The notes: generated by a model not told the origin, from the sequence alone. 40,661 nucleotides of DNA from Bacteroidales bacterium UBA2716 (GCA_002354005.1 DEKS01000148.1:1-40661), one strand, 5' to 3'; positions 6,621 through 40,661 are shown, counted from the first letter of the stretch. Made by a program: numbers and translations.

Positions 6621-9503
6621 CTACAGGGCCTTTAAGGCGCCGTCCAGGCGGCGGAAGGCAATGTCGATGAAGTCCTTGGTGCCGGAACCGTCGTTCACAT
6701 ACCCGATCACCATGTCGGCAAAGTCGATGGCCTCACGGAGCGGCGTGCTCTTGTCCTGGATGCCTTTGGCCCGGGTAACCAGCTTAAGGAGGGCGTCCAA
6801 ATCCTCCGGCTCCGCCAGGTTGCCGGGCCGCATGGAATTGATGGCTGCATTCAGGGCCGATGTAGCCTTGGTCACGGCCTCCTGCCCGGCGTTGTCATCG
6901 GCAAGGACAGCCTCTGCCGCAGCCATTTGCTCCTGCATGCGGGCGTAGCCGTTGGGGGCCCAGGGGGCGAACGGCGGCACTTTCTCCGCAAGGGCGTTCC
7001 AGGCATCCTGGGCCTCCACGCGGGAGCGGGCAATCTTCACGGCCTGCTCCAGGTAGGTCTTGTCCACCACGCCGGCCCTGGCGGCTTCCTTGTTGCCGGT
7101 GAGCACGTTCAGGCGCAGGTAGTGGGTGCTGTGCCCGGTCATGAAGTAGTCCGGATAGAAGGTTTTGTCGCCCAGGGTGAGGCTGTACACATTGCCATTG
7201 GTGCCTTCCCCGCCAGTGGTCCCCTTGAGCACCACGTCTTTCAGGTCTGCATCCAGGGTGAATTCCGCCTGTTCCCATACGGTGATGTCCGGGGTGGCCA
7301 TCACCAGCGGGCCGTACAGGATGGCGCCTTCCCACATGGGCTCGAACGGCGTACGGGCCTCGTTCACGCCCGTTGCCGCCAGGTCCATCTTGTCCGGGCC
7401 AAAATGGATGTGGGCGCTAAACGGCATCTTCACTTCCACTTTGTCGCCGGCCTTCCACTCCCGCTCGGGGATTTCCACGTAGGAGCAGGGTGCGTATTGT
7501 TTAGCCACGGACTTGCCGTTGAGCTTGACGCTGAAGCCCTGGGTGGCCCAGGACGGCACGCGGAGTTTCATGGCAAAGCGGCCGCCTTTGTCTATGCGAA
7601 TAACGGACTTCTCTGCCGGCCAGGCGCATTCCTGGGTGAATGCCACGTCCTTGGCGGCCCAGCGTACCTGCGTGGGCAGATACAGCGCCACCCAGAGGGT
7701 GTTGTCATTCACAAAGTAGGCGGCTTCCTGGTATTTCACGTGGTTTTCCGCACCGGTGCCGCCGCAGCAGGTGCTCTGGGGCGTTTCGCTGCCAAACGGC
7801 TTGGTGGCGTTCAGGCCCACGGCGTACTGATAGCACACGCCGTATTCCGTGGGATGCACGGAGCCCACCAGCTGGTTGTACAGCACGCGCTCATAGTAGT
7901 CCATATAGCGGGCGTCGTCCGGGTTGAAGCTGTTCAGGTCCTTGGTGAGCTTGGCCAGGTTGTAGGCGCAGCAGGTCTCGTTGATGTCCGGGTTGGGGAA
8001 GAGGTTGCCCTCGTGGTCGCTCATCACGCTGGTGTTCATGCTCATCATCTGGGAGTAGGGCTGACGGAACATTTCGCCGTTGCCCACGCCGCCCATGGCG
8101 TAGGCGTATCGGCCCTGAATCATTTCCCAGAAGTTGGAGGCGATGTTGTAGTAGCGCGGGTCTCCGCCCACCTCGTAGCTCTTGAGCGCGCCCACAATCA
8201 TGGGGATGTGCTGGTTGGCGTGGCGCGTGCGGATATCGTCGATGTTGCGGGACAGCGGCTCGTAGAAGGCCGGGGCGTCAAAATAGGACGCGGCCTCCGC
8301 CAGGCGCTGTTTTTCCGTGGCGTCCTGCACCATGTCGCTCAAGCGGGCCAGGGACTCCTGCATGCCGCCCACTTCGCCGGCAATGTACATGTTCCACATC
8401 TCGTAGCGGTTGCCGGGACGGGCCTGGCGCTCCGCCTTGGTGCCATCGGCCTTGACATAGGTGCGGTAGTGGAGGCGGTTCCACACCCACAGGCCCATGT
8501 CCTTGGCCACTAACAGCGCCTTGGCTGCCAGGGCTTCGTCGTCAATGTTGTTGGCAATGTCTATAAGGCCGGCCAGTTGCTTGTGGATGGAATAATACGG
8601 GGCCCAGACGCCGCTGAAGTTATTGTAGGCGGTGTATTTCTCGATGAGGACGGGGTGCTGGGCCGGAATGGCGTTGATGTAGCCGTAACCATACTGGGTG
8701 CAATCCTTCTTGTACTGGTCGAAGGCGTCCCAGGTGCCCTTCATATGCTTGAGCTCGGCTTCCGGGGCCAGGTCGCGGGCCTCCCGGTATCGGCCCAGCT
8801 TGGGGTCGTACACGAAGGTAAGTTCCTGGCAGGCCCGGAGTTCGTCCACCATGCGCTGGATGTTGGCCTTGAGGGCCGCCTTTTGCTCCGGATTGTCCGT
8901 GCTGGCGTAGGCGAAGGCCAGGGCGCTCATGTAGTGGCCGCTGCCGTGGCCCTTGAGCTTGGTGTCCGGGGAATCCCAGCCGTCGCTCTCCGTGTAGCCT
9001 TCCGTGGGGAGGCCGTAGGTGTCACGGTAGTTGTACAACTGCTGGGTAATGTCCTGGGCCAGCAGGTTGCGGATATCCATGTCCCGGTTGCCGGTGAGGC
9101 GGTTGTCACCAATCAGCTTAACATCGCCCAGCGGCAGGGGCTCTGCCACCTTTGCCGGAGTTTCCCATGTGCCGTCCACCACGGTGACGGAGGCTTCCAG
9201 CGGATAGCCGTTCTCGGTGGTGTTGTCGCCGATTACATAGCCTTTCACCACGTATGTGCTGCCCACGGGCAAGGCGGCTTCCTCCTCCTCGGTTTCGCGG
9301 AGGGAGTTGGTCCATTTTACCTGGCGCCACTCGCGGGTGCCATCGGCATAGGTTACCTGGATTTGCCAGGGCAGACGGGGAGCCGTTCCCTGCGGCGTTT
9401 CCACCGTTACGGCGGGCACTTCCTGGATGGTACGGGCGGTTTTGGAAGGGCTGCAGGCTACCGCCAGTGCGGCAACGAACGCAATTTTGGCTATGGTTTT
9501 CAT
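6621..9503 (-). CDS. Beta-L-arabinofuranosidase lipoprotein (GH146/GH127 Cys-glycosidase group) with N-terminal Ig-like and C-terminal FIVAR-like regions
   Basis: Lipobox ALAVAC; GWDSP..LKGHGSGHYMSA, WAPYYSIHK, RHANQHIP, NETCCAYN, DYYERVLYN, STCCGGTG Zn/Cys motifs; Big_4-like PRLPWQIQVTYADG; FIVAR-like VDKTYLEQAV...ALNAAIN. Confidence 0.85.
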   Translation of the reverse strand: MKTIAKIAFVAALAVACSPSKTARTIQEVPAVTVETPQGTAPRLPWQIQVTYADGTREWRQVKWTNSLRETEEEEAALPVGSTYVVKGYVIGDNTTENGYPLEASVTVVDGTWETPAKVAEPLPLGDVKLIGDNRLTGNRDMDIRNLLAQDITQQLYNYRDTYGLPTEGYTESDGWDSPDTKLKGHGSGHYMSALAFAYASTDNPEQKAALKANIQRMVDELRACQELTFVYDPKLGRYREARDLAPEAELKHMKGTWDAFDQYKKDCTQYGYGYINAIPAQHPVLIEKYTAYNNFSGVWAPYYSIHKQLAGLIDIANNIDDEALAAKALLVAKDMGLWVWNRLHYRTYVKADGTKAERQARPGNRYEMWNMYIAGEVGGMQESLARLSDMVQDATEKQRLAEAASYFDAPAFYEPLSRNIDDIRTRHANQHIPMIVGALKSYEVGGDPRYYNIASNFWEMIQGRYAYAMGGVGNGEMFRQPYSQMMSMNTSVMSDHEGNLFPNPDINETCCAYNLAKLTKDLNSFNPDDARYMDYYERVLYNQLVGSVHPTEYGVCYQYAVGLNATKPFGSETPQSTCCGGTGAENHVKYQEAAYFVNDNTLWVALYLPTQVRWAAKDVAFTQECAWPAEKSVIRIDKGGRFAMKLRVPSWATQGFSVKLNGKSVAKQYAPCSYVEIPEREWKAGDKVEVKMPFSAHIHFGPDKMDLAATGVNEARTPFEPMWEGAILYGPLVMATPDITVWEQAEFTLDADLKDVVLKGTTGGEGTNGNVYSLTLGDKTFYPDYFMTGHSTHYLRLNVLTGNKEAARAGVVDKTYLEQAVKIARSRVEAQDAWNALAEKVPPFAPWAPNGYARMQEQMAAAEAVLADDNAGQEAVTKATSALNAAINSMRPGNLAEPEDLDALLKLVTRAKGIQDKSTPLREAIDFADMVIGYVNDGSGTKDFIDIAFRRLDGALKAL

Positions 9504-9528
9504 ACGCGTGTAAGGTGTTGTGCAGAAT

Positions 9529-11682
9529 TTACTTGATGTGCATGTGAATGGTGACTACGGCCTGGTAGTCGCCGTACACGAACACCGGGCGGATGGTGTA
9601 ATCCTCGCCGGGGGAGACTACGCCGGGCTTGGTGCCCACTTGGAAGGTCCAGCTGGTGCGGTCGTACTGGGTGTACACGGTAGGCGTTCCGCCCCAAGGG
9701 GTGACGGACCCGTCCGGAGCATACCAGAAGCCGTAACCGTTGGCCGTGTACTGGTAACTCACCGTGCCGTCCGGCTCCAGCGAACCGAACTTCACCTTGC
9801 CCTTGGCGTAGTTGGCGCGGTCGGAGGCAATGGCGGCGGCAATCTCGGAGGGCTGCATCACAAAGGCATACCCAATCTTCTCGAAATCGTCCGCATCAAA
9901 AGTGAAGGTGGGGCCGGCATACCCGTCGGCGGCCGGGACGTCAATATCCTTGACGATTTCCGTGTTGTGCGGCGTTTCGTCGCCGGTGAAGGCAATCTTG
10001 GTGATGAGGTCGGTCCCGGTGAAACGTACGCGGTACGGCCAGGTGCCGCCCTGCTCGCTGCCGTAGTAGCGGGAAGGCGTGCAGGATACCACCAGCCACA
10101 GTTTTTCCGTTTCTGCAGGAACGGTCCAGTTGGCGCTGGAGGTCCCACTGGTAAGCGTAGGGGTGCTGTAGGCGCGGGAACCATCGGCCAGGAGGGCTAC
10201 AAAACCGTAGGTCCAGCCGGCATCGGCCTTCTTGGCCAGGCCTTCGAATTCCGCGCTTACACTGCTGCCGGCAGCGGGTTTCAGGCGGATGATGTTGAAG
10301 CCGGTGGCCTCCGGAGCGCGGGCGTCGCCCACTTTGTTCCAACCGTCGCCGTCGTCAGAACCCACCCAGCCGATGTTGCCGATGTAATCCGTGCCAAAGT
10401 CGCCAATAGAGGCGGTGCGTTCCACGTTGCCTTGCTCGTCCAGGTTCACCACTTCCGTCTTGAAGTCCCAGGTGGCGCAGCGGGCGGCGTATTCGTACAA
10501 ATCCTGGTTCAGGGTGGCTACGTCTCCGCCGCAGTAGAGGCGCATGTAGGCCTGGCAGGCGTCTTCCGTGCGCTTGGATTCCTTCCAGATGCGGCCGTAG
10601 GCGTCAAAGCCGTATTTGTCGGTCCATAGGAACTGGAACCAGTAGGAGGCGTAACGCATGTCAAAGTAATGGAAGTGCCGATGGCTGTTCTCCGCAAACA
10701 CGCGGAAGTTGTCCTGCGTGTAGGCCTGCTCGGCATAGAGGTTGAAGCTCTGCCAGTTGGCGCAGGCTTCCCAGAACACGCCGCCGCTCTGCATGAAGCC
10801 GGCGTCCTTTTGGCCGAAATCGGAGTATACCTGATACTGGAACGCGTGCCCAATCTCGTGGGCAACGGTGCTGCCGGTGGGCTGGCAGGCCGTGGCGCTC
10901 ACCCACAGGCCGCCCATGTTGCCGGAACCGCCGCCCTCGGCCTTCCAGGAAGTAGTGCCGTACAGGAAGATGGACATGTAGTATTTGTCCAGGAACGACT
11001 CTCCCTCGGGGCCGCGCATGCCGAACTTGTTCACATAGGTGTCGTAGTAAATCTCGGCCTTCTTGAGGAGGTCGTCCACGTCTACGCGGATTTCCTTGGG
11101 CGTGTCGTTATCGCCCGGGTCAATCTCCCCCGTCTCGTCGTAGCCCTTGTCCCACAGGACGATGAAGTGCTCGCTGGTGCGCGCACGGCCCAGGTAGAAC
11201 TCGCTGTCGGAGCTCTTGAGCTTGGCTAGGCTGCCCGTAATGCCGGTGTAGATGCGGCTGGCATCAATGCCCTTGGCGGCGATTTCCGCATCGGTGAGGG
11301 TAATTACCGGAGCCTTCTGCGTGACGGTAAAGCTATACTTGGATTCTCCGCTCATGATGGAAACATCGGCCTTGCGGGAGGCTCGGTCCGTGTTTTCATC
11401 GGCCGTAATGGTTACCTTGAACGACTTTTTCTCGCCGTTTCCCGTGGCGCGTTCCGGGTCAAAGTGCAGCCAGCTGGCCTCGCAGGCAATGTGCCAGGCC
11501 TCGGTGCAGGTGAAGCGGATGACCTTTTCGCCGCCCTCGGCCGTGAAAGTGGCCGCCGGGGCAATCTTGTAGGCAATCTCGCCGGTATTTTCCGTCCAGG
11601 TTTCCTTCTCCTGCTGCTTCTGGCAGGAGAAAAACAGCCCTGCGCAGAGGACGAGGGCTGTCAAATGAAGTACATGTTTCAT
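9529..11682 (-). CDS. Surface lipoprotein: BACON + HEXXH zinc-peptidase-like domain (DUF6055-like) + C-terminal DUF4859-like module
   Basis: Lipobox FFSC, BACON-like (FTAEGGEKVIRFTCTEAWHI..SWLHF), HEIGH at 10846-10860 then FWEA, C-terminal TANGYGFWY module. DUF names recalled, not searched. Confidence 0.75.
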   Translation of the reverse strand: MKHVLHLTALVLCAGLFFSCQKQQEKETWTENTGEIAYKIAPAATFTAEGGEKVIRFTCTEAWHIACEASWLHFDPERATGNGEKKSFKVTITADENTDRASRKADVSIMSGESKYSFTVTQKAPVITLTDAEIAAKGIDASRIYTGITGSLAKLKSSDSEFYLGRARTSEHFIVLWDKGYDETGEIDPGDNDTPKEIRVDVDDLLKKAEIYYDTYVNKFGMRGPEGESFLDKYYMSIFLYGTTSWKAEGGGSGNMGGLWVSATACQPTGSTVAHEIGHAFQYQVYSDFGQKDAGFMQSGGVFWEACANWQSFNLYAEQAYTQDNFRVFAENSHRHFHYFDMRYASYWFQFLWTDKYGFDAYGRIWKESKRTEDACQAYMRLYCGGDVATLNQDLYEYAARCATWDFKTEVVNLDEQGNVERTASIGDFGTDYIGNIGWVGSDDGDGWNKVGDARAPEATGFNIIRLKPAAGSSVSAEFEGLAKKADAGWTYGFVALLADGSRAYSTPTLTSGTSSANWTVPAETEKLWLVVSCTPSRYYGSEQGGTWPYRVRFTGTDLITKIAFTGDETPHNTEIVKDIDVPAADGYAGPTFTFDADDFEKIGYAFVMQPSEIAAAIASDRANYAKGKVKFGSLEPDGTVSYQYTANGYGFWYAPDGSVTPWGGTPTVYTQYDRTSWTFQVGTKPGVVSPGEDYTIRPVFVYGDYQAVVTIHMHIK

Positions 11683-13511
11683 TATTTACCGTAAGGTTTG
11701 ATGTTGCTGAACTGGGCTTTCCAGGGCCACTTGGTGTCCGTGTTGTCGGATTCGTCCGCCCAGGGATGGCGTTCATACTTGTTCGGAGCACCGGTAACCA
11801 CCAACCACACTTTGGAGGCGTTGGCAGGTACCGTCCAGGTCTGGGTTTCGCTGCTGCTCACGCTGGCTTTCCAGATAGGGCTGTAGGTGCGGGTGTTGTC
11901 AGCATTGAGGGAGACAAAGCCGTAGCGCCAGCCGGCCAGCGAGACCGAGCCGCTCTTGCAGCCGCTTGCGCCCAGGTTTGCGCCAAAGGTAACGCTTACT
12001 TCTTCACCCTTAGGAACCGTCATGCGGACAGCGTTATAACCGGTGGTCTCGGGGGAGAGGGAAGCGTTTACGCTCCACCAGCCGTCGCTTTCGCTGATGT
12101 TTCCGGCCGAAATAGCCATCTCACCATGATGGTCGATGGTCATGCTTCCGTATTTGTATTTGGCATATTGACGGAGCTCTTCGGTGTCGTAGGTGACCAT
12201 GTGCGAGGCATAGCCGTACATGGAGTCGTTCATCTGCTCCACGTCGTAGTCCATCAGGCGCATGTAGGTCTCGATGGGATCTTCGGGGAACTGGGCTTCG
12301 TTCCACAGGCGGCCGATGAAGGTGATGTCGTTCTGCTCCACCCACCACCAGTGGATGAAGTAGTCGGCGTAGCGCGGACGCTCGTGCAATACGTGCAGAT
12401 GCGTGGACTTGGTATATTCGCCATACCAGCCGGCGAAGGTTTCCTCGCGGTACTGGCTCATGACCATGCTCTGCCACTGGGCGGTCTGCTCCCAGAAAGC
12501 GTTGCCGCCGTCACCGTTGTCACCGTAGCCATAGCGCCAGCCGGGACCCTGCAGGCCGGAAGTGGAAGGGGCTTTGTCCACGCTCACGCCCTGGCGGACC
12601 AGGTAGTCGCAGAAGGTCATGTACTGGAAGCAGTGGCCAATCTCATGGCCGATGGTGCTGCCCACAGGCTTGCAGGTGGACGGATTCACCCACAGGGCGC
12701 CAATCACGTTGTCGTAACCGGAACCGGTGGCCAGCCATTCGCTCTGGTAGATGAGGTAGATTTCCATCTTGTACTTGTCCAGGACGGACTGTCCTTTGCC
12801 GGTGTTTGCAAATTTGAGCTTGTTCACGTTGAGGTCGTAGAATTCTTCGGCTTTTTTGAGGAGGTCGTCAATGTCCACGGCCATGGAACTGGTCTTGCAG
12901 GTGGTGGGCCAGGTATTGGCTTCACCCATGCGATCGCCGTAAAGGCCGTACTGGCCGTATTTGATGTCCCAGAACACCACAAAGTGCTCGCTCTGCTTGC
13001 TGCGGCACCAGCTCCACTTGGCGTCCGAGCGGAACATGTCAAAGTTGAATTCCTGCGGCTTGTAGTATTTCTCCAGGTCCGGAACGTCGGCTGCCGTCAG
13101 GATAAGAACGGCGGCATTCTGGTTCACGGTGAATTTCTTTTTCTTGGAGCCGGAAAGGATGCGGCAGGTTGCCGAGCGTGCAGGGCCATTGTTGGCTTTG
13201 CCCGCCAGGGTGACGCGGATGGTCTTACCGCTCTTGCCGCTCATTTTCTCGGCGGAGAGCCAGCTCTGGGCCTCTTCCGGAATTTCCAGGAACCACTCGT
13301 GGTCGCAGGCAAAAATGAGGATGCCGGTATCGCCTTCTTCGGGCCCGATGGTTACGGACTGCGTAGTAAGGGTGATGGTGGCCTCGTAGTTGTCCGTCGG
13401 GCCGGTGGGTGTGTTTTCCGCGGGCGTCTGGTCCGTGTTGTCCTTTTGGCAGGCGGGTACGGCGAACAGGGCCGCCGCCAGCATCAGATACAGAAAAAGT
13501 TTTTTCATCAT
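11682..13511 (-). CDS. Surface lipoprotein: BACON + HEXXH zinc-peptidase-like domain (DUF6055-like), no C-terminal module
   Basis: Lipobox AVPAC, BACON-like (FACDHEWFLEIPEEAQSWLS), HEIGH at 12633-12647 then FWEQ; paralog of both neighbours. Confidence 0.75.
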   Translation of the reverse strand: MMKKLFLYLMLAAALFAVPACQKDNTDQTPAENTPTGPTDNYEATITLTTQSVTIGPEEGDTGILIFACDHEWFLEIPEEAQSWLSAEKMSGKSGKTIRVTLAGKANNGPARSATCRILSGSKKKKFTVNQNAAVLILTAADVPDLEKYYKPQEFNFDMFRSDAKWSWCRSKQSEHFVVFWDIKYGQYGLYGDRMGEANTWPTTCKTSSMAVDIDDLLKKAEEFYDLNVNKLKFANTGKGQSVLDKYKMEIYLIYQSEWLATGSGYDNVIGALWVNPSTCKPVGSTIGHEIGHCFQYMTFCDYLVRQGVSVDKAPSTSGLQGPGWRYGYGDNGDGGNAFWEQTAQWQSMVMSQYREETFAGWYGEYTKSTHLHVLHERPRYADYFIHWWWVEQNDITFIGRLWNEAQFPEDPIETYMRLMDYDVEQMNDSMYGYASHMVTYDTEELRQYAKYKYGSMTIDHHGEMAISAGNISESDGWWSVNASLSPETTGYNAVRMTVPKGEEVSVTFGANLGASGCKSGSVSLAGWRYGFVSLNADNTRTYSPIWKASVSSSETQTWTVPANASKVWLVVTGAPNKYERHPWADESDNTDTKWPWKAQFSNIKPYGK

Positions 13512-25563: not shown

Positions 25564-25630
25564 TTTGGACGATTTTACAAAACAATTGGATTCTGTTACT
25601 TTTTTTTGCCCGGAAGATTCGGTAAATTTG
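25564..25630 (+). promoter_or_regulatory. Activator-dependent promoter of the right-arm operon: TTGGA(C/T) direct repeat plus -7 box
   Basis: TTTGGACGATTTTACAAAACAATTGGAT with half-sites at 25565 and 25586 (21 bp apart); TAAATTTG at 25623-25630; same geometry as the susC promoter. Confidence 0.8.
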
Positions 25631-31442: not shown

Positions 31443-32971
31443 TGAGAAAACTGTTATTCCTGTTTGCTGCACTTGCCGTTTCCCTGGTGGCCCTTTCCGG
31501 CTGCGGGGGAAGGGAGCATCCCTACACGATGGACTATACGGTGGCTGTAGATACCGTCGGTCATTATCTTCTTGTGGACCTGGATTTGTCCATGACACCC
31601 GGCTCAGGCCCCGTCACGCTGAACATGCCCCGCTGGACGCCGGGGTATTATGAGATGCTGGATTTTCCCAAGCACCTGTGCGACTTTTCCGTGGCGGATG
31701 CTGTCGGAACACCCTTGGCCTGGGAGAAGAGCGGGATGAACCGCTGGGTGGTCTCGCTTCCGGAAGACGGCCGCGTGAAGGTGTCGTACCGCATCTATGC
31801 CAACCGGAGGGATGTGGGATCCAGCCGCGTGGAAGGCGGAGTCGCCTTCGTTTCCCCGGCGGGCGTGTTCATGCATGTGGACGGCGACCTGCAGCATCCG
31901 GTGCGGGTGCGTTTCCGCCTCCCGGAAGGCTGGGAGAAAATTTCTTCCGGACTACTCCCCGTGGAGGGAACGGCAGATACTTTCCAGGCCGATGACTTCG
32001 ACCGCCTGTACGACAGCCCGTTCCTCCTGGGCAACTATTACACCTGTAATTTTGAGCACGAAGGACATCCTTACCATTTTGCCATTGAAACGCCCGAAGG
32101 TTTGGAAGAGAGCGGTTTCCGGGAGGATTTCTGCCGGATTGTGAGCGCAACTACGCGCCTGATGGGGGAGGTCCCCTATAATAACTACTGCCTCATCCAT
32201 ATGGGGGCTGGCGGCGGAGGCCTGGAACACTGGAACTCCCAGGCTTGCTATACGGACGGCACCTATCGGTTTGCGAACCGGGAACGGCAGGTCTCTTTCC
32301 TGGGCTTTGTTGCGCACGAGTACTTTCATCTGTACAACGTCAAGTGCATCCGTCCGGCAGAGCTGTGGCCCTTCAACTATGATACCGAGGCTGTTACGCC
32401 CATGCTCTGGGTAAGCGAGGGGCTCACTTGCTACTACGAGTTCCGTCTCATCCGCTCTTCCGGCGCGGTTACCCCGGAGGAGGCCCTGGCCCAGCTTTCC
32501 GGCTATTTCTCCCGCTATGCCCCATATGAGGGCCAGCGCCACATGAGCCTTCGTCAGAGCAGTTACGATATTTGGCTCAACTTCATGAACGAAGATGCCA
32601 ACGAGAAGGACGTCCGTATCAACTATTATTTCAAGGGCCCTGTAGTGGGGCTGCTCATGGACATTGACATCCGGCGCCACACTGCGCAGGCGAAGTCCCT
32701 GGACGATGTGATGCGCGGCCTCTATCAGCGCTATTACAAGGAACTTCAGCGCGGATTCACGGAAGAGGAGTTCTGGCAGGAGGTGGAAAAGACCTACGGC
32801 GGCCCCGTTCCGCATCTCCGCGCGCTTGCAAATACTACGGAAACAATTGATTATGAGGCGTATCTCAAGGACGCCGGCCTGTACGTGGATACGGCGTCCT
32901 GGTCCATCTGCCGGGTGGAGAGCCCTACGCCGGAACAGCGCGATTTTCTGGAACACTTGGATTTGATATAA
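31442..32971 (+). CDS. M61-family (glycyl aminopeptidase-like) metallopeptidase lipoprotein
   Basis: Lipobox LSGC; MPRWTPGYY, GGGLEH, AHEYFHLYNVK, LWVSEGLTCYY, NYYFKG; appears to lack the usual C-terminal PDZ. Confidence 0.88.
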   Translation: MRKLLFLFAALAVSLVALSGCGGREHPYTMDYTVAVDTVGHYLLVDLDLSMTPGSGPVTLNMPRWTPGYYEMLDFPKHLCDFSVADAVGTPLAWEKSGMNRWVVSLPEDGRVKVSYRIYANRRDVGSSRVEGGVAFVSPAGVFMHVDGDLQHPVRVRFRLPEGWEKISSGLLPVEGTADTFQADDFDRLYDSPFLLGNYYTCNFEHEGHPYHFAIETPEGLEESGFREDFCRIVSATTRLMGEVPYNNYCLIHMGAGGGGLEHWNSQACYTDGTYRFANRERQVSFLGFVAHEYFHLYNVKCIRPAELWPFNYDTEAVTPMLWVSEGLTCYYEFRLIRSSGAVTPEEALAQLSGYFSRYAPYEGQRHMSLRQSSYDIWLNFMNEDANEKDVRINYYFKGPVVGLLMDIDIRRHTAQAKSLDDVMRGLYQRYYKELQRGFTEEEFWQEVEKTYGGPVPHLRALANTTETIDYEAYLKDAGLYVDTASWSICRVESPTPEQRDFLEHLDLI

Positions 32972-32981
32972 GTCTAACCCT

Positions 32982-34220
32982 ATGCGTATGAAACTGATAA
33001 CCAAACACATCCTGACGGTGGCAGCTGCTCTCTCCCTAAGCTGCACCGGCCTGTTTGCACAGGAAGCGCCGCAACCCCTTTCTGATTCCCTGTACCGGAG
33101 TCTCGCCGCCACCCCGCCCATGGGATGGAACAGCTGGAACAAATTCGGCTGCAACGTGAGCGAGCAGCTCATCCGGGACATGGCCGACGCCATGGCCGCT
33201 TCCGGCATGGCGGATGCGGGGTACCAGTACATCGTCATTGACGACTGCTGGCAGGTGAGTCGCGACGCGGATGGCAACATTGTCCCGGATCCGGAGCGTT
33301 TCCCTTCCGGCATGAAGGCCCTGGCCGATTATATCCATAGCCTGGGCCTCAAGTTCGGCGTGTATTCCTGCGCCGGTTCCCTGACCTGCCAGGCCCGTCC
33401 GGGCAGCAAGGGCCACCAGTTCCAGGATGCCCTGCAGTATGCCAAGTGGGGCGTGGACTACCTCAAGTACGACTGGTGCTACAATGACGGCCAGAACGCC
33501 AAGGCAGCCTACCAGACCATGTCGGAGGCCATCAAGGCTGCGGGCCGTCCCATCGTCCTGAGCATTTGCGAATGGGGCGAGAACAAGCCTTGGGAGTGGG
33601 GCGAGGGCATCGGCCACCTGTGGCGCGTAACGCCGGATATCCGTGCGTGCTATGACTGCACCTTCGACTGGGGCGGCGTGGGCGTGCTCCAGTGCATCGA
33701 CGCCGCTGCCGACCTGTACCCTTACGCTGGTCCCGGCCATTGGAACGACATGGAAATGCTGGAAGTGGGCAACGGCGAGCTCACCTATGACGAGAACGTG
33801 ACCCATTTCTCCATGTGGTGCATGATGGCGGCCCCGCTGATGAGCGGCAATGACCTCCGGGAAATGGACCACAAAACGCGCGAAATCCTCACCAACAAGG
33901 AAGTGATTGCAGTGAACCAGGACCCGCTGGGCCGGCAGGGCATCCGTTTCATGAAGATGGGTGACCAGGAAATCTGGGCCAAACCCCTCGCCGACGGTGA
34001 AATTGCCGTGTGCTTCATGAACCGCAGCAGCCTGCCCTGGAAATTGGATTACAACTGGACCGCGCAGACCATGTACTTTGCCAAGGACGTGAACCTCAAA
34101 AAGAACACTTATACGGTACGGGACCTCTGGAAGCACAAGTACATCGGCACCACCAAGGACCGCCTGAAAGCGGAAATTCCCAGCCACGGTGTCCTGATGG
34201 TCCGTCTCACCCAAATGTAA
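32982..34220 (+). CDS. GH27 alpha-galactosidase
   Basis: Signal peptide; TPPMGWNSWN, IDDCWQ (Asp-Asp, alpha-galactosidase type), YLKYDWC nucleophile, WRVTPDI acid/base, WNDMEMLEVGN. Confidence 0.93.
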   Translation: MRMKLITKHILTVAAALSLSCTGLFAQEAPQPLSDSLYRSLAATPPMGWNSWNKFGCNVSEQLIRDMADAMAASGMADAGYQYIVIDDCWQVSRDADGNIVPDPERFPSGMKALADYIHSLGLKFGVYSCAGSLTCQARPGSKGHQFQDALQYAKWGVDYLKYDWCYNDGQNAKAAYQTMSEAIKAAGRPIVLSICEWGENKPWEWGEGIGHLWRVTPDIRACYDCTFDWGGVGVLQCIDAAADLYPYAGPGHWNDMEMLEVGNGELTYDENVTHFSMWCMMAAPLMSGNDLREMDHKTREILTNKEVIAVNQDPLGRQGIRFMKMGDQEIWAKPLADGEIAVCFMNRSSLPWKLDYNWTAQTMYFAKDVNLKKNTYTVRDLWKHKYIGTTKDRLKAEIPSHGVLMVRLTQM

Positions 34221-34226
34221 ACGCAT

Positions 34227-36275
34227 ATGAGGAAGACATTTGCCACCCTTTTTGCAGGCTTGCTCACGCTGGGCATGAACGCGCAGGACTTTGATGCCGC
34301 CTACGCCAAGACGGAACCCGTGCTCCATTGGGGGGAGAAATTGTACAACGGCGCCGTCCGGCCCGTTTGGACGGGGGAGGACAGTTTTGTGTTCCAGACA
34401 CGCGAGACTACCGGCGAGGTGTGGTACCGGGTATGTGGTACGCAGAAAGTGGCCGTGGCCAAAGAGGTCTATGAGAATGCCCTCAAGAGCGACCGCAAGG
34501 ACTGGTACGATGCCTCCGACGAGAGCCAGTACGCGGTACGCAAGGAAGTGAAGGAACTGTCTCCGGACAGCACCCGGGTGGCCTTCGTCCGTGACAACAA
34601 TGTCTGGATAAGCCGGGCCGATGGTGCCCAGCCGGTGCAGCTGAGCTTTGACGGAACGGACGGAGAGGCCTACAGCGAACTGCTTTGGTCGCCCGACGGC
34701 ACCCGTCTGGCGGCACTGAAAAAGGAAGTGCTCAAGGAGCGCCAGATCCTGCTCCGTGTTTCGCGGCCGGACATCCAGGTGCAGCCCAAGTACCGCTGGC
34801 TGGACTATGCCAAGCCCGGCGACCGCCTGCCCCAGTGCACGCCGGCCCTCTTCGACACGGAAGCGCAGGTGCAGATTCCCCTGAACCGCAGCATCCCCCT
34901 GGACCAGTACTTCCTGGTGCTGGGCCAGTGGTCGGAAGACAGCGAATTCTTTACCTTCGAATACAACCAGCGCGGTCACCAGCGTTATGAACTGTGCGCC
35001 GTGGATGCCGCTACCGGCGAGGTGCGCACCGTGACGCGCGAGCAGAGCGATACCTTTATCTATTACTATGACCTTTGGCGCTACCTGTTCCGTGACGGTA
35101 AACGCCTGCTCTGGATTTCCGAGCGCGACAACTGGCGCCACCTTTATATGATAGACACACGCACCGGCAAGGCGCGCCAGCTCACCAAGGGCGCGTGGAA
35201 CGTGCGGGAAATCCACCATGTGGACGAGGAGGGCGGTTTTGTGCTGGCCAATGCCAACGGCCTGGGAGCCGAAAAGGGAGAGGACCCGTATAACAAGCAT
35301 GTCATCCGCATTGACCTGGCTACCGGCAAGGTGACGGACCTTACGCCGGAGAATGCGCACCATGAGGCATCCTTCAACCCTTCCGCCTCGGTGTTTGTGG
35401 ACAATTACTCGCGTCCGGACCTGCCGTATACGTCCGTGCTTCGCAGCGCCAGGGACGGCAGCGTGCTTTTGGAAATCCAGCGGGAGGACATATCGGCCCT
35501 CCTGAAAGAAGGCTTTACCCTGCCGGAGGTGTTTGTGGCCAAGGGACGTGACGGCGTCACGGACATCTGGGGCACCATCTGGCGGCCCTCGCACTTCAAG
35601 GCGGGGAAGAAATACCCGGTGGTGGAATACATCTATGCCGGTCCGCACGACTCCCATGTGGACAAGAACTTCATGAATTATCCGCCCCGCTTCATGCGCC
35701 TGACGCAGCTGGGCTTCATTGTGGTGTGCATCGACGGCATGGGTACCGACAATCGTTCCAAGCAGTTCCAGGACGTGGCTTGGCGCAATCTCAAGGACGC
35801 CGGCTTTCCGGACCGTATCCTGTGGATGCAGGCGGCCGCCGCCAAATATAAGTACATGGACCTGTCCAATGTGGGCATCTACGGTTATTCCGCCGGCGGC
35901 CAGAATACCCTGGCGGCCCTGCTGTTCCATCCGGAGTTCTACAAGGTGGGCGTGGCCCTGTGCGGCTGCCACGACAACCGTATGGACAAAATCTGGTGGA
36001 ACGAGCAGTGGATGGGCTACCCCGTGGGCCCTTGGTACGGCGAAAATTCCAATGTGGACAATGCCTGGCGCCTGGAGGGTAAACTCTTCATTATCAACGG
36101 AGAGGTGGATGACAACGTGGACCCTGCTTCCTCGCTGCAGGTGGTGTCGGAACTTGTTAAACACAACAAGGACTTCGAGCAGCTCTATCTGCCCGGCTTT
36201 TCCCACAATTTGAGCGCTCCCTGGGTGACGCGCCGCGTATTTGAATTCTTCTATAGAAATTGTAAAACAAAATAA
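34227..36275 (+). CDS. S9 family serine peptidase with DPP-IV-type beta-propeller
   Basis: Signal peptide; propeller (LSPDSTRVAFVRDNNVW, WSPDG, GAWNVREI); YAGPH, GYSAGG nucleophile, DDNV, terminal His. Confidence 0.9.
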   Translation: MRKTFATLFAGLLTLGMNAQDFDAAYAKTEPVLHWGEKLYNGAVRPVWTGEDSFVFQTRETTGEVWYRVCGTQKVAVAKEVYENALKSDRKDWYDASDESQYAVRKEVKELSPDSTRVAFVRDNNVWISRADGAQPVQLSFDGTDGEAYSELLWSPDGTRLAALKKEVLKERQILLRVSRPDIQVQPKYRWLDYAKPGDRLPQCTPALFDTEAQVQIPLNRSIPLDQYFLVLGQWSEDSEFFTFEYNQRGHQRYELCAVDAATGEVRTVTREQSDTFIYYYDLWRYLFRDGKRLLWISERDNWRHLYMIDTRTGKARQLTKGAWNVREIHHVDEEGGFVLANANGLGAEKGEDPYNKHVIRIDLATGKVTDLTPENAHHEASFNPSASVFVDNYSRPDLPYTSVLRSARDGSVLLEIQREDISALLKEGFTLPEVFVAKGRDGVTDIWGTIWRPSHFKAGKKYPVVEYIYAGPHDSHVDKNFMNYPPRFMRLTQLGFIVVCIDGMGTDNRSKQFQDVAWRNLKDAGFPDRILWMQAAAAKYKYMDLSNVGIYGYSAGGQNTLAALLFHPEFYKVGVALCGCHDNRMDKIWWNEQWMGYPVGPWYGENSNVDNAWRLEGKLFIINGEVDDNVDPASSLQVVSELVKHNKDFEQLYLPGFSHNLSAPWVTRRVFEFFYRNCKTK

Positions 36276-36287
36276 TAACACAAAACC

Positions 36288-37913
36288 ATGAACAACGCAA
36301 TCGTCAATTTCCCGGTGCCGGCCAACGAGCCGGTGAAGGCTTATCTGGAAGGTTCTCCGGAGCGTGTGGCCCTGGACGCCGAGCTCAAACGCCAATACAA
36401 CACGGTGGTGGACATCCCCATCATCATCGGCGGCAAGGAAATCCGCACCGGAAATACCGGCAAGGTGGTTTGCCCGCATGACCACAAACACGTGCTGGCC
36501 ACCTTCCACAAAGTTGGGGAGAAGGAAGTGCAAATGGCCGTGGAGGCTGCCATGGAGGCCCACAAGATTTGGAGCGAGACTCCCTGGACCACCCGCGCCG
36601 CCATCGTCCTCAAAATGGCGGAACTGCTCGCTACCAAGTATCGTCCCATCCTCAATGCCGCCTGCATGCTGGGCCAGAGCAAGAATATCTATCAGGCGGA
36701 GATTGACAGCGCCTGCGAGACCATCGACTTCTTCCGCTACAACGTGCACTTCGCCTCCAAGATTTACGGCATGCAGCCCAAGAACGGCGCCGGCAACATC
36801 AACCATACGGAGTACCGTCCCCTGGAAGGCTTCATCCTTGCGGTTACTCCCTTCAACTTCACATCCATCGCCTCCAACCTGTGCATGACGCCGGTCCTGA
36901 TGGGCAACGTGGCCCTGTGGAAGCCTTCCACCACTTCTACGCTCTCCAACTACTATCTTATGCAGCTGTACAAGGAAGCCGGCCTGCCGGACGGCGTCAT
37001 CAACTTCCTGCCGGGCAGCGGCGCCCTCATCGGCAAGGTGGCTACTTCTTCCAAGTGGTTCGCCGGCATTCACTTCACCGGCTCCACCGGCACCTTCAAC
37101 AGCCTGTGGCGTCAGGCTGGCGAAAACCTGGGCAATTACGTGAGCTATCCCCGCCTGGTTGGTGAAACCGGCGGCAAGGACTTCATCTTTGTGCATCCTT
37201 CCGCAGATGCCAAGGCCGTGGCAACGGCTGCATTCTGCGGTGCCTACGAATTCCAGGGCCAGAAGTGCTCCGCAGCTTCCCGCATGTACGTGCCCAAGAG
37301 CCTGTGGCCGGAAGTGCTGGGCATCATGAAGCAGTATGCCTCGGAGGTGAAGATGGGCGATGTGATGGACCACGGCAACTTCATCAACGCCGTCATCGAC
37401 GAAGCCTCCTGGGACAATATCGACAGCTATATTTCCTATGCGGAGAAGGCCTCCGACGCCAAAGTGGTGATGGGCGGAGGACGCGACAAGAGCGTAGGCT
37501 ATTTTGTGGAACCCACCATCATCGAAACCACCAACCCGCACTTCAAGAGCATGGAAGAGGAAATCTTCGGTCCCGTGCTCACCGTGTATCCCTATGACGA
37601 TGACAAGGTGGACGAGGCTGTGAAACTGTGCGATGAGACTTCCCCGTACGGCCTCACCGGTTCCGTCTTTGCCAAGGACCGCCTGGCCGCGGAGAAGATT
37701 ACCCACGACCTCCGCTATGCCGCCGGCAACTTCTACATCAACGACAAACCCACCGGAGCCGTTGTGGGCAATCAGCCGTTCGGCGGCGCCCGCGCTTCCG
37801 GTACCAACGACAAGGCCGGCGGTGAGTTCAACCTCATCCGTTGGGTCATCCCCAGAGTCATCAAGGAAACCCTGGTGAGCCCTACCGACTACCGTTACAC
37901 CTACATGAAGTAA
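36288..37913 (+). CDS. pruA: L-glutamate gamma-semialdehyde (P5C) dehydrogenase
   Basis: PANEPV, QAEIDSACETIDF, YRPLEGF..TPFNF, FTGST, ETGGKDF, FQGQKCSA, EEIFGP, INDKPTGAVV.QPFGGARASGTNDKAG. Confidence 0.95.
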   Translation: MNNAIVNFPVPANEPVKAYLEGSPERVALDAELKRQYNTVVDIPIIIGGKEIRTGNTGKVVCPHDHKHVLATFHKVGEKEVQMAVEAAMEAHKIWSETPWTTRAAIVLKMAELLATKYRPILNAACMLGQSKNIYQAEIDSACETIDFFRYNVHFASKIYGMQPKNGAGNINHTEYRPLEGFILAVTPFNFTSIASNLCMTPVLMGNVALWKPSTTSTLSNYYLMQLYKEAGLPDGVINFLPGSGALIGKVATSSKWFAGIHFTGSTGTFNSLWRQAGENLGNYVSYPRLVGETGGKDFIFVHPSADAKAVATAAFCGAYEFQGQKCSAASRMYVPKSLWPEVLGIMKQYASEVKMGDVMDHGNFINAVIDEASWDNIDSYISYAEKASDAKVVMGGGRDKSVGYFVEPTIIETTNPHFKSMEEEIFGPVLTVYPYDDDKVDEAVKLCDETSPYGLTGSVFAKDRLAAEKITHDLRYAAGNFYINDKPTGAVVGNQPFGGARASGTNDKAGGEFNLIRWVIPRVIKETLVSPTDYRYTYMK

Positions 37914-37916
37914 GTT

Positions 37917-38777
37917 ATGAAACGTCTTATCCTTCCCGTGGTGGTGCTTGCAGCCCTTATCCTGGGCTGCAAGGGCCCCCAGAAGGCGGTGGAAGTGGAC
38001 TTTGTCACCGCCTTGGGCATTCCGGAGTGTGTTATCACCACACCTCCGGATTCGCTGCATCTGGACCCTTGGTACAAAAAGTATGTGGACGTGAACGGCA
38101 TTCCGCTGTGCAGCTCCCGGCGTTGCCCGGACAGCGCACTGGTAGCCGGTTACAACACCCTGTGGGCCATGACCTCCATGTTGTCGGATGACGTTATGGA
38201 CGCCCTCAGGAAGGCCGGTACCAGGGTTACCATGATGGGCCGGTACGAGGGCACCACGGATGTGCCGGAGCACGCTTATCTTGCGGCGGATACCACCCTC
38301 AACTGGGACTTGAGGGCCCGCGGCCTGGGCGGCGACCTGGAGTTCCCGCTCACCTCCTGCGCGGAGGAGAACGTGCTGGGCTACCAGATAGACAAGTACC
38401 ACGCGGAGGATATCCTCATTCACGAATTCGCCCACAGCATCCACCTGGTGGGCATTGTCCAGGTGGAGCCGGACATCAACGGGCGCCTGGAGGTGCTGCT
38501 GCAAAATGCCATCGACAAAGGGCTGTGGTGGAATACGTACCGTACCACGGACATTGCGGAGTACTTTGCGGAGGGCGTGCAGGACTGGTTCAACGTGAAT
38601 GCGGAGATGGACCATCCTGACGGCAAACACAACTACGTGAACACCCGCGAGGAACTCAAGGAACGGGACCCGGGCCTATGGCAGCTTCTCAGTGAGTATT
38701 TCCCCGCCACGGACCAGCAAATCTCCAAGCACAAGTACGTAAACCTTTGCACCAAAGCTAATAGTCGAACCCGATAA
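37917..38777 (+). CDS. Small HEXXH zinc-metallopeptidase-like lipoprotein (lethal-factor/PPEP- or M90-like zincin)
   Basis: Lipobox LILGC; WDLRARGLGG, ILIHEFAHSIH, EYFAEG third-ligand motif, ELKERDPGLWQLL. Confidence 0.7.
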   Translation: MKRLILPVVVLAALILGCKGPQKAVEVDFVTALGIPECVITTPPDSLHLDPWYKKYVDVNGIPLCSSRRCPDSALVAGYNTLWAMTSMLSDDVMDALRKAGTRVTMMGRYEGTTDVPEHAYLAADTTLNWDLRARGLGGDLEFPLTSCAEENVLGYQIDKYHAEDILIHEFAHSIHLVGIVQVEPDINGRLEVLLQNAIDKGLWWNTYRTTDIAEYFAEGVQDWFNVNAEMDHPDGKHNYVNTREELKERDPGLWQLLSEYFPATDQQISKHKYVNLCTKANSRTR

Positions 38778-40171
38778 TGTTCAGTAAAGAAACCTATATC
38801 TCCCGCCGTGCGGCCCTCCGTGAAAAAGTGGGCAGCGGCATCCTCCTGTTCCTGGGAAACAACCAGGTAGGCATGAATTACGAAGGCAACGAGTACGACT
38901 TCCGTCAGGACAGTTCCTTCCTCTATTTCTGGGGCCTGGACTACGCCGGGCTCTCGGCTGTCATCGACGCAGATTCCGGTGAGGAAATCATCTTTGGCGA
39001 CGAGCTCACCATTGACGATATTGTCTGGACTGGCACCATGCCGTCCCTCTCGGACAATGCCAAACTGGTGGGTGTGGAGAAAACCCTTCCGGTGAAAGAC
39101 CTGAAGGAGTACCTTCGCAAGGCCATGCACCAGGGCCGGAACGTGCGCTTCCTGCCGCCGTACCGTGGAGACCATTACCTCCGCCTGATGGACCTGCTTG
39201 GCATTCTGCCGGAGGTGCAAACTGTCAGGGCGGACGAACCTCTCATCAAGGCTATTGTGGATATGCGTATCCACAAGACGGCGGAAGAGATTGCCGTGAT
39301 TGAGGATGCGGTGGACGTGAGCACCCTGATGCATCTGGAGGCGTACCGCCGCGTGCGTCCCGGCGTTCATGAGGCCCAGGTTGCCTCTTCTGTCCTCAAG
39401 ATTGCCACCAAGCGCCCCGGCGGCCGGCTTGCCTTCCCTACCATTGCCACCGTGGCGGGTCAAGTGCTTCACAATCACGGATTTATCCATACCCTCAAAG
39501 AGGGAGACATCTTCCTGTTGGATGCGGGCGCGGAGAATGCCTACCATTACTGCGGAGACCTTTCTTCCTCCATGCCCGTGAGCGAGCGTTTCACCCGTCG
39601 GCAGGAGGAGATTTACAACCTGCACCTGCGCAGCTTTGATGCGGCCGTGAAGGAACTCCGTCCCGGGAATCCGTACCGCAACGCCCACCTGGCCGCGGCG
39701 GAAACCATTGCGGAAGGCATGGTGGACCTGGGCCTCATGAAGGGAAATCCCCGCGACATTGCGGAGAGTGGCGCCTACGCCCTTGTATTCCCATGCGGCA
39801 CCGGCCACATGATGGGACTGGATGTCCACAATATGGAAAACCTCGGAGAGCAGTACGTGGGATACGCAAACGGGGAGAAGAAGAGCACCCAGTTCGGCTT
39901 CAAGTCCCTGCGCCTTGCACGCCCGCTGGAAAAGGGCTTTGTGTTTACGGTGGAGCCAGGCATCTACTTCATACCTGAACTGATAGACCTTTGGAAGGCC
40001 GAAGGCAGGTTCAAGGAATTCATCAATTATGACAAATTCGAGGCTTGGAAGGGTTTCGGAGGCCTCCGCAACGAGTTGGACTATGTAATCACGGAAACGG
40101 GCGCCCGGGTCCTTGGCAAACTCAAAAAGCCCATGACCCTGGAAGAAGTTTACAACGCAAAACATTCATGA
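38777..40171 (+). CDS. Aminopeptidase P / Xaa-Pro peptidase (M24B), cytoplasmic
   Basis: AMP_N (FRQDSSFLYFWG), LLDAG, GDLS, GHMMGLDVH, TVEPGIYF, GLRNE; no signal peptide. Confidence 0.93.
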   Translation: MFSKETYISRRAALREKVGSGILLFLGNNQVGMNYEGNEYDFRQDSSFLYFWGLDYAGLSAVIDADSGEEIIFGDELTIDDIVWTGTMPSLSDNAKLVGVEKTLPVKDLKEYLRKAMHQGRNVRFLPPYRGDHYLRLMDLLGILPEVQTVRADEPLIKAIVDMRIHKTAEEIAVIEDAVDVSTLMHLEAYRRVRPGVHEAQVASSVLKIATKRPGGRLAFPTIATVAGQVLHNHGFIHTLKEGDIFLLDAGAENAYHYCGDLSSSMPVSERFTRRQEEIYNLHLRSFDAAVKELRPGNPYRNAHLAAAETIAEGMVDLGLMKGNPRDIAESGAYALVFPCGTGHMMGLDVHNMENLGEQYVGYANGEKKSTQFGFKSLRLARPLEKGFVFTVEPGIYFIPELIDLWKAEGRFKEFINYDKFEAWKGFGGLRNELDYVITETGARVLGKLKKPMTLEEVYNAKHS

Positions 40172-40661
40172 AGAATTTTGGCATCAAATATCCGCAGAAC
40201 GACGGCGGAATGAACGCGCGCATCAAACGGCTGCGCCAGGAAAGTATTGAAACGCCCGCCACCCTCACCATTGAGCGGGCCCTGATAGAAACCGCTTTCT
40301 ACAAGGAGAATTATGGCAAGTACCCCACCCCGGTGCTGCGCGCCAAAAACTTCTATGAGATTTGCGCCAAGAAAACCATCTATATCGGCCCGGATGAGCT
40401 TATTGTAGGGGAGCGCGGCCCCAAGCCTAAGGCGGTGCCCACATTCCCGGAACTCACGTGCCACTCTGTGGAGGACCTCCATGTGCTGGACACCCGTGAA
40501 CTGCAGCAGTACAACATTTCGCAGGCCGACATTGACACCTACGAGCGCGAGGTCATCCCTTACTGGCAGGGCAAAACCCAGCGGGAGCGTATTTTCAACC
40601 ACGTTTCCAAGGAGTGGGAGGAAGCCTACCACGCCGGTGTGTTCACCGAGTTCATGGAGCA
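40168..40661 (+). CDS. hypD: trans-4-hydroxy-L-proline dehydratase (glycyl radical enzyme), N-terminal part; runs off the right edge
   Basis: Not in the ORF track. ATGA overlap at 40168; MKNFGIKYPQNDGGMNARIKRLRQES...IERAL...PVLRA...ELIVGERG...PTFPELTCHSVEDL...IPYW...EWEEAYHAGVFTEFME matches the HypD N-terminus as I recall it (PTYPEICCH, EWLAAYEAGMFTEFMEQ). The active-site Cys and Gly lie outside the window. Confidence 0.85.
   Translation, partial: MKNFGIKYPQNDGGMNARIKRLRQESIETPATLTIERALIETAFYKENYGKYPTPVLRAKNFYEICAKKTIYIGPDELIVGERGPKPKAVPTFPELTCHSVEDLHVLDTRELQQYNISQADIDTYEREVIPYWQGKTQRERIFNHVSKEWEEAYHAGVFTEFME

Follow-up and report, generated by a model that had tools for sequence, protein, structure and literature searches.

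We analyzed a 40,661-nucleotide stretch of DNA from Bacteroidales bacterium UBA2716 (GCA_002354005.1, DEKS01000148.1:1-40661; hereafter, the window), in which a SusC/D pair, arabinose- and galactose-directed glycosidases, predicted peptidases, and enzymes of hydroxyproline (Hyp) catabolism stand together from position 6621 onward. A first-pass annotation, made from the sequence alone, had proposed here a complete utilization locus for extensin and related plant Hyp-rich glycoproteins, from surface capture to anaerobic Hyp catabolism. The contig is 41,748 bases long, of which the window covers the first 40,661; the genome measures 2.25 Mb and is 91% complete. The locus consists of two divergent arms on either side of a regulator gene: a minus-strand arm running from susC to a GH146-like gene and a plus-strand arm running from GH127 to hypD. 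Gene calls and Pfam/NCBIfam scans confirmed the genes listed by the first-pass annotation, each in its place, and added a CotH protein, a DUF4859 lipoprotein, and the regulator, which that list lacks. Seven peptidases are predicted in the locus (three DUF6055 proteins, M61, S9, a small HEXXH protein, and M24B), and all hydrolases that were checked have intact catalytic motifs.

The minus arm is ordered susC, susD, DUF4859 lipoprotein, three BACON-DUF6055 lipoproteins, and GH146-like lipoprotein. The SusC-like TonB-dependent transporter (19445..22522; TIGR04056, 724.5 bits against a cut-off of 368) and the SusD-like lipoprotein (17485..19425; PF07980 and PF14322, both above cut-off) are encoded by adjacent genes with a 19-base gap. 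Together with the co-located carbohydrate-active enzymes (GH127, GH146-like, GH51, and GH27) and a sensor-regulator, they give the locus the makeup of a Sus-like polysaccharide utilization locus (PUL). The DUF4859-repeat lipoprotein that follows (15842..17437; three PF16151 stretches and a lipobox) is likely a surface binding protein, judging from its place after susD. The next three genes encode predicted zinc peptidase lipoproteins: BACON-DUF6055-DUF4859 proteins at 13508..15775 (PF19527, E 1e-131; NF040510, E 9.8e-22) and 9529..11682 (PF19527, E 2e-100; NF040510, E 3.8e-14; HEIGH at 275) and, between them, a BACON-DUF6055 protein at 11682..13511 (PF19527, E 2e-121; HEIGH at 289). All three contain HExxH with a Glu further downstream, and H285, E286, H289, and E324 are invariant (10/10) in an alignment of DUF6055 proteins. 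A sequence search of the PDB with DUF6055 gave no match. The structural model of the protein at 13508-15775 (pLDDT 79.8) has a gluzincin fold, aligning with the M30 structure 7bb8 (Z 15.1; root mean square deviation, 5.4; 275 aligned residues) and with the M60 O-glycopeptidase ZmpB (7js4, E 1.2e-6); the fold is also near M1.

The arabinose chains of extensin consist of one to four arabinofuranose (Araf) units, and GH127 and GH146 enzymes cut beta-L-arabinofuranosides. The two beta-L-arabinofuranosidases named by the first-pass annotation were borne out by PF07944, PDB matches, and motifs. One is a GH146-like predicted lipoprotein with Big_4 and FIVAR domains (6621..9503, minus strand; PF07944, E 5e-55; GEVGGM, ETCC, and CCGGT), for which the best PDB matches are 5opj (E 1e-47) and 8k7x/8k7y (E 2e-30 to 6e-30), with GH127 structures reaching just E 3e-8 and 1e-6. 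The other is a GH127 enzyme with a signal peptide (25654..28071, plus strand; PF07944, E 2e-122; GHQIAE, CETCA, and CACCP). A third GH127-family gene of the genome lies on contig C135. The plus arm further encodes a GH51 alpha-L-arabinofuranosidase (28056..30101; PF22848, PF06964, and PF02018) and a GH27 enzyme, likely an alpha-galactosidase (32982..34220; PF16499), whose top PDB matches are alpha-galactosidases (E 8e-107 to 2e-97), whereas the beta-L-arabinopyranosidase Abp reaches just 6.5e-31. We take its IDDCW motif to contain the Asp characteristic of alpha-galactosidases. Such an Asp marks these enzymes (PMC4598101). According to published accounts, extensin is built of Ser-Hyp4 repeats bearing Araf-alpha1,3-Araf-beta1,2-Araf-beta1,2-Araf-beta-Hyp (PMC6085000), its Ser bears alpha-Gal (PMC9266454), and the last Araf on Hyp is removed by GH146 in Bifidobacterium and Xanthomonas (PMC10850190). 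Relatives of the locus carry GH43 in place of the window's GH51 and, often, GH97 in place of its GH27; these swaps appear to keep bond classes rather than families.

The plus arm (25654-40661) holds ten genes with intergenic gaps of -16 to +12 bases, ordered GH127, GH51, CotH, M61, GH27, S9, Δ1-pyrroline-5-carboxylate (P5C) dehydrogenase, small HEXXH, M24B, and hypD. Its peptidases include an M61 aminopeptidase lipoprotein (31442..32971; PF17899 and PF05299; HEYFH), an S9 peptidase of the DPP-IV type with a signal peptide (34227..36275; PF00930 and PF00326; Ser-Asp-His motifs), and an M24B Xaa-Pro aminopeptidase/prolidase-like protein without a signal peptide (38777..40171; PF00557 and PF05195). 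The last of these had been called aminopeptidase P; its M24B membership stands, and since it scores 153 bits (E 8e-45) against the aminopeptidase P model NF008131, whose cut-off is 465, "aminopeptidase P/prolidase-like" is the safer label.

The remaining peptidase, the small HEXXH lipoprotein (37917..38777, plus strand), resembles ATLF/M90 zincins and is a candidate Pro/Hyp endopeptidase. As a single protein it matched no named family at E 0.001 in profile scans. Among 20 homologues, ATLF was matched in 5 (best E 2.4e-5) and M90 in 12, and H-E-F-x-H, a Tyr, and EY-AE are invariant across the family. A separate Atlas feature match scored 0.96. A profile of the family found only two PDB matches, a lethal-factor fragment (E 0.034) and PPEP-3 (9g0j, E 0.55), and phmmer of the protein against the PDB returned nothing. 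The alignment with PPEP-3 pairs the HExxH motif, the invariant Tyr (Tyr190 of PPEP-3, hand-counted), and the Glu of EEY-AE. The two differ in that the N-terminal half is unaligned and the window protein is a Bacteroidota lipoprotein; its single-sequence model is of low confidence (pLDDT 31.8). The likeness would suit cleavage of Hyp-Hyp bonds and proves nothing. In six genomes of the genus, the gene encodes a tandem two-domain protein of 534-564 amino acids (e.g., L013:6815-8416, L015:14703-16373, L024:6932-8623, and L032:11573-13204), and in four, an M64 peptidase stands in its place or beside it.

HypD (trans-4-hydroxy-L-proline dehydratase) converts Hyp to P5C. The 5' part of hypD occupies 40168..40661 on the plus strand, and the gene runs beyond the window to the contig end, assembled as 164 plus 361 of ∼800 codons with an NN gap at 40662-40663. 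The NN sits in a five-base duplication that is absent from the 96%-identical copy in the congeneric genome G069, the closest relative, which marks it as an assembly seam. The C-terminal third of the gene, with Thr645 and the Gly765 radical loop, is missing from the assembly here; the G069 copy runs to full length and has the RVAGYS loop. For both pieces, NF043068 is the best of all glycyl radical enzyme models (E 3e-52 and 2e-163), with scores of 178 and 545 bits against a whole-protein cut-off of 1100, the gene being split at the contig end. Compared with Clostridioides difficile HypD (6vxc), hypD matches at E 3e-135, against 3.5e-65 for the next radical enzyme. The active-site residues named in PMC7077986 are kept in the assembled part (8/8: His160, Asp278, Ser334, Asp339, Phe340, Cys434, Glu436, and Tyr450). 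The window contains no HypD activase; a single candidate in the genome lies at G000:C122:14288-15193 and shares 56-77% identity with 17 activases encoded in the hypD loci of relatives. Its neighbors are dxs, a UvrA-like gene, and two MFS transporters, the same genes that flank hypD in G210, G147, and G076. With hypD cut by the contig end and the activase candidate on another contig, the word "complete" in the first-pass annotation had to be given up. The P5C (glutamate semialdehyde) dehydrogenase (36288..37913, plus strand; TIGR01236, 750 bits against a cut-off of 614) is the only copy found in the genome, and proline dehydrogenase was not found in this 91%-complete assembly. Because the one P5C dehydrogenase detected shares its row with hypD and proline dehydrogenase was not detected, a route from Hyp through P5C to glutamate is likely.

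Both arms are headed by the same predicted operator, a TTGGAC repeat with 21-bp spacing, as the first-pass annotation had noticed. One site lies upstream of susC (22609..22635, minus strand), and the other heads the ten-gene row that begins with GH127 (25565..25591, plus strand) and is kept in relatives. The pattern TTGGAC-N15-TTGGAY occurs twice in the window against 0.00 times in 100 shuffles, a flattering figure given that the pattern was derived from the same two sites; with four mismatches allowed, these remain the only two sites in the whole 2.25-Mb genome. Tandem repeats of this spacing are, we presume, typical of hybrid two-component regulators. The regulator between the arms (22638..25517, minus strand; 959 amino acids) is hybrid-two-component-like, with a propeller sensor, Y_Y_Y, and an AraC helix-turn-helix in the Pfam scan, which detected neither kinase nor receiver domains; this suggests direct signaling from sensor to AraC domain. 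A scan for sigma-70 promoters and for terminators, whose model does not cover Bacteroidota promoters, performed at chance (10 versus 6.0 and 12 versus 14.9, respectively). Gut RNA libraries, part of them labeled sheep, contain the window stretch: contigs from four runs in three studies span both arms, some matching it to at least 99%, and two cross the M24B-hypD junction. We set these contigs aside as evidence of expression, as the flanking ABC genes are covered too and neither strand nor level is shown.

To place the locus among its relatives, we used an even draw of 300 genomes of the genus, each at least 80% complete. HypD occurs in 22 and DUF6055 in 21, with both in 18; thus, DUF6055 is present in 18/22 HypD carriers against 3/278 other genomes. 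An orthologue of the GH146-like enzyme (65-95% identity, the next tier being ≤37%) was found in 32 genomes, namely, 20/22 HypD carriers and 12/278 others. GH127, present in 73/300, is too common to be as telling. Kinship-blind Fisher tests were not relied on; independent pairs were used instead, drawn on an rpoB tree built by FastTree. The tree holds 65 genomes with carriers enriched by choice (64 of the 80 asked plus G000, the window's genome), leaving out 14 without an rpoB match along with G160 and G183 (partial piece) and using one of two copies from G230. On this tree, 10 changes are required for the joint trait, with supported branches forcing no fewer than 7, and two genomes whose RpoB is 99% identical to that of the window genome are noncarriers. 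Across nine independent pairs differing in HypD, DUF6055 was concordant in ∼7 and opposite in 0 (median p 0.016), and GH146 was likewise concordant in ∼7 and opposite in 0. The grouping of HypD, DUF6055, and GH146 is not due to kinship, and the trait is patchy.

The hypD loci of 21 of the 22 carriers (all except G186) were compared, four of them cut by contig ends. M24B stands directly upstream of hypD in 19/21, P5C dehydrogenase lies within four genes of hypD in 15/21, and a DUF6055 gene directly precedes P5C dehydrogenase in 9/21; hypD stands alone in G106 and G230. Beta-arabinofuranosidases share the contig stretch with hypD in five loci (G069, G313, G297, G293, and G289), and G007 and G306 probably hold them with hypD across a contig break. 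In G313, G297, and G293, the operator lies upstream of GH127, GH146, GH27, and the susC that heads the P5C dehydrogenase-hypD row. Because the operator heads both the glycosidase genes and the susC/GH27 of the hypD row in these genomes, the pattern points to one regulon for the glycan and hypD modules even where they form separate operons. In G069 (G069:C11:38325-51470; L003-L004), a second susC/D, three uncharacterized proteins, and a fourth DUF6055 lie between S9 and P5C dehydrogenase. The same two genes are 12 bases apart in the window, without the extra cassette of G069; given that cassette, the window appears to be an abridged version in which a glycan module and a Hyp-peptide module have fused.

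Across Bacteroidota, we compared the best 75 of at least 469 confirmed DUF6055 loci. Cultured organisms with a SusC/D-DUF6055-GH127 locus include Bacteroides intestinalis (L077/L079), B. reticulotermitis JCM 10512 (L098), and Mangrovibacterium marinum DSM 28823 (L086), the last with hypD elsewhere in its genome. The 75 loci span gut Bacteroides, Prevotellaceae, Tannerella, Proteiniphilum, marine Marinilabiliales, and Sphingobacterium, and the closest named ones come from metagenome-assembled genomes of ruminant-gut Bacteroidales, one titled Candidatus Cryptobacteroides sp. Within 10 kb, these 75 loci contain susC in 63 and susD in 57. GH127 or GH146-like genes were found in a raw count of 47/75 (42/60 among loci of at least 15 kb). 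GH51 or a GH43 cluster is present in 21 of the loci, GH27 or GH97 in 15, S9 in 15, DUF5695 in 13, and small HEXXH in 8. Three loci from distant Bacteroidales (L089, L137, and L103) carry hypD that is 72, 67, and 53% identical, joined to M24B and an activase, and hold SusC/D, DUF6055, and GH127/GH146 in other orders; GH43 replaces GH51, and in two of them GH97 stands beside or replaces GH27. Two order-level candidates were rejected: in G601, DUF6055 and hypD lie 18 kb apart on one contig with housekeeping genes between them, and in G619 the matching coordinates belong to a different contig. The peptidase-arabinosidase PUL is widespread, with the hypD tail a lineage-specific addition.

DUF5695 (∼900 amino acids; e.g., L130:3557-6262) often stands beside GH146/GH127 in the 13 loci that carry it. 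It has no PDB sequence match and was not found in the window's genome, and it is a candidate for an unrecognized beta-arabinoside enzyme. In Sinomicrobium (L109 and L110), L-arabinose isomerase and aldose epimerase genes lie beside DUF6055 and DUF5695.

Several known systems share parts of the locus. Bifidobacterium longum hypBA (HypBA1, GH127; HypBA2, GH121; HypAA, GH43; Bll4HypBA1, GH146; and an ABC importer) has in common with it a GH127, a GH146, and an alpha-arabinofuranosidase for Hyp-arabinosides, as described in PMC6085000 and PMC10850190. The window differs in using SusC/D import and GH51 rather than GH43 and in lacking GH121: among its locus genes there is no GH121, HypAA-type GH43, or ABC sugar importer, the flanking ABC genes being MacAB-TolC-like. 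Beyond the B. longum system, it combines Hyp catabolism with an alpha-galactosidase and seven predicted peptidases in one locus. In Xanthomonas euvesicatoria, the XCV2724/2728/2729 cluster encodes glycosidases for Hyp-arabinosides next to a prolyl oligopeptidase gene, a pairing shared with the window; this is an aerobic plant pathogen, however, its peptidase gene is a pseudogene in that strain, and the part of PMC6085000 that describes the system mentions neither SusC/D nor HypD. The Bacteroides thetaiotaomicron PULs for arabinogalactan proteins (AGPs; BT3674 GH127) share with the window SusC/D, control of the hybrid two-component type, and a near-orthologous GH127, whereas the window lacks their galactan-backbone enzymes and has peptidases and Hyp catabolism. 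In its assembled part, the HypD active site is as in the HypD/activase/P5C reductase cluster of C. difficile; the window pairs HypD with a P5C dehydrogenase (leading to glutamate) at the end of a glycosidase-peptidase operon, while C. difficile uses a reductase. In Latescibacteria, extensin use was inferred from GH127 alone, according to PMC4454575. For HypD, Huang et al. 2018 (PMC6219649) note a dehydrogenase near hypD in Oscillibacter.

A further comparison concerns Pectobacterium Svx/Xanthomonas AvrXca (NF040510), HExxH...E gluzincins like DUF6055. The model is matched by 2/3 window DUF6055 proteins and 9/10 aligned ones (at best over positions 66-515, E 1e-21). As reported in PMC13164431, Svx degrades carrot extensin and not mucin or concanavalin A, and it needs its C-terminal domain to cleave extensin; Svx itself has been modeled on ZmpB, according to PMC9266454. 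The window proteins are BACON/DUF4859 lipoproteins in a nutritional context, whereas Svx is secreted and has an acyltransferase-like domain, for which BACON and DUF4859 may stand in. We treat this apparent kinship as a lead only, one that is independent of the glycosidases and lies outside the evidence of the first-pass annotation.

On this evidence, we consider it likely that the window carries a SusC/D locus for extensin-type Hyp-rich glycoproteins that ends in the anaerobic oxidation of Hyp to glutamate. Under this reading, the DUF6055 zinc peptidases, predicted to lie at the surface, would cleave the glycosylated protein, and SusC/D would import the glycopeptides. GH51, GH127, GH146, and GH27 would remove the arabinose chains along with the galactose on Ser, GH51 being expected to act on the alpha-1,3 cap, GH127 on the beta-1,2 links, and GH146 on Araf-beta-Hyp. 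Free Hyp would then come from the action of the S9, M61, small HEXXH, and M24B enzymes and would pass through HypD and P5C dehydrogenase to glutamate. Cell locations are predicted from signal peptides, and we infer the order of steps, the bond specificities, the substrate, and the binding of the operator by the neighboring regulator. The proposal of the first-pass annotation that both the glycan and the Hyp backbone are used gains from the co-occurrence with phylogenetic control, the synteny, the operator, the three distant lineages, and the Svx match. It had also named a lack of linkage of hypD and the peptidases to the glycosidases in related genomes as refuting this proposal; within the genus, the comparison did not refute it, and outside the genus hypD is usually unlinked.

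Several findings weigh against this reading. The matches to NF040510 reach 77 and 52 bits against a cut-off of 625, the proposed alpha-Gal pocket of Svx (W136-G137) reads S-T at the equal HExxH offset in DUF6055, and the DUF6055 C terminus is DUF4859 or nothing, without the acyltransferase-like C-terminal domain. In an order-wide draw of 300 genomes, HypD occurs in 10/16 DUF6055 carriers versus 100/284 others, a weak link; 0/11 order-level hypD neighborhoods lie inside such a locus; and among 10 named genomes picked by hand, 3 have hypD linked, 5 have it at another place, and 2, both Bacteroides, yielded no hypD. The interpretation of the first-pass annotation is supported in part. A role for GH51 on the alpha-1,3 Araf cap is a guess, the characterized enzymes being GH43; GH121 is absent among the locus proteins, each of which is otherwise assigned; and the nearest structure to the GH127 enzyme is presumably that of an arabinogalactan enzyme.

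That last point favors another Hyp-rich glycoprotein as the target, either AGP or gum cores from which other loci or microbes have removed the galactan or algal wall glycoproteins; glycan and Hyp backbone would both be used as before, on a different substrate. We regard this as unlikely. The structure in question, 6ex6 (1032 bits), is presumably that of BT3674, an enzyme of arabinogalactan use that acts with galactanases on larch arabinogalactan. According to PMC10850190, BT3674 helps degrade larch arabinogalactan, and GH27 and GH97 also include beta-L-arabinopyranosidases of AGP use, which act on AGP caps (PMC8056906); in addition, many related loci come from marine and sediment Bacteroidota. 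Against such a target, the Pfam scan of the locus proteins found no galactanase, arabinanase, or uronidase family, so that neither a beta-galactanase nor a uronic-acid enzyme family is represented; the GH27 enzyme, with its Asp-type IDDCW, has alpha-galactosidases as its nearest matches and Abp as a distant one; and the Svx relative is extensin-selective. Chances are low, too, that two unrelated modules merely adjoin, a beta-arabinoside PUL for branched arabinan/rhamnogalacturonan I and an operon scavenging Pro/Hyp peptides of collagen-type or released origin. The second susC/D of G069 between S9 and P5C dehydrogenase, the separation of the modules in many relatives, the mostly unlinked hypD outside the genus, and the lone hypD of G106 would all fit such a pairing. 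So would a GH51-CotH paralogous pair near a GH43 gene at G000:C79, given which the pair in the window may derive from an arabinan locus. Yet the same operator serves both modules in G313, G297, and G293, DUF6055 genes occur in both, and GH146 tracks HypD across independent pairs even where unlinked; moreover, three distant lineages join the modules, all ten plus-strand genes of the row in the window abut, and the locus has no endo-arabinanase. A nonplant glycoprotein of microbial, protozoal, or host origin, with DUF6055 proteins as mucin-type O-glycopeptidases and HypD incidental, is highly improbable: the BACON domains and the fold match to ZmpB speak for it, while the glycosidases are arabinose- and galactose-directed, the Pfam scan of the locus proteins found no sialidase, fucosidase, or hexosaminidase family, and the co-occurrence with HypD is tight.

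The CotH kinase-like lipoprotein of the plus arm (30105..31442; PF08757, E 7e-44) has counterparts in 18 of the best 75 DUF6055 loci, mostly immediately after DUF6055. A further lipoprotein type of ∼540 amino acids, with an HEGIH motif and a weak Pfam match or none, occurs in 7 of these 75 named loci and in three loci of the genus (e.g., L076:9504-11126 and L004:7818-9413). Outside the locus, 720-6415 encodes a MacAB-TolC-like ABC exporter (TolC, adaptor, two permeases, and ATPase), 205 bases beyond the GH146-like gene. The same exporter adjoins that gene in G069 and L068 and is absent there in most relatives; it is probably unrelated to the locus. At 1-575 lie two small minus-strand open reading frames of lower GC content, one resembling a small antitoxin and the other opening with a DTN motif, which we take to be that of PIN-domain (VapC-like) proteins.

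Returning to extensin as the target, we see an even chance that the window typifies a class of intact-extensin-digesting loci that spans the phylum and has yet to be described. In such a class, DUF6055 proteins would be Svx-related surface extensin glycopeptidases, the small HEXXH protein a Hyp-Hyp/Pro-Pro endopeptidase, and DUF5695 of the sister loci a beta-arabinoside hydrolase of a new kind; hypD and P5C dehydrogenase would have been added separately in several anaerobic lineages, covering the path from surface to glutamate under one regulator. The first-pass annotation knew of no characterized Bacteroidales SusC/D locus joined to HypD, and our search of the open full-text literature, titles, and abstracts (subscription papers and supplements being outside its scope) likewise found no Bacteroidota SusC/D locus for extensin or joined to hypD. 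The open literature searched mentions DUF6055, DUF5695, or DUF4859 in just two fungal papers and yielded no PUL papers on DUF6055, DUF4859, or the small HEXXH family.

For these three families, the locus supplies a substrate hypothesis. In PMC6219649, Huang et al. suggested that gut Bacteroidetes with HypD possess proteases and hydrolases for freeing Hyp from plant glycoproteins, and they called finding such enzymes an important challenge; the locus offers concrete candidates for each Hyp-freeing step that they predicted, and its front half is present in cultured Bacteroides. If the extensin reading is true, it would explain the P5C dehydrogenase beside hypD and offer enzymes with which to dissect extensin. 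A structural plant wall protein would then join the targets of PULs, with a bearing on nitrogen and fiber use in herbivore guts.

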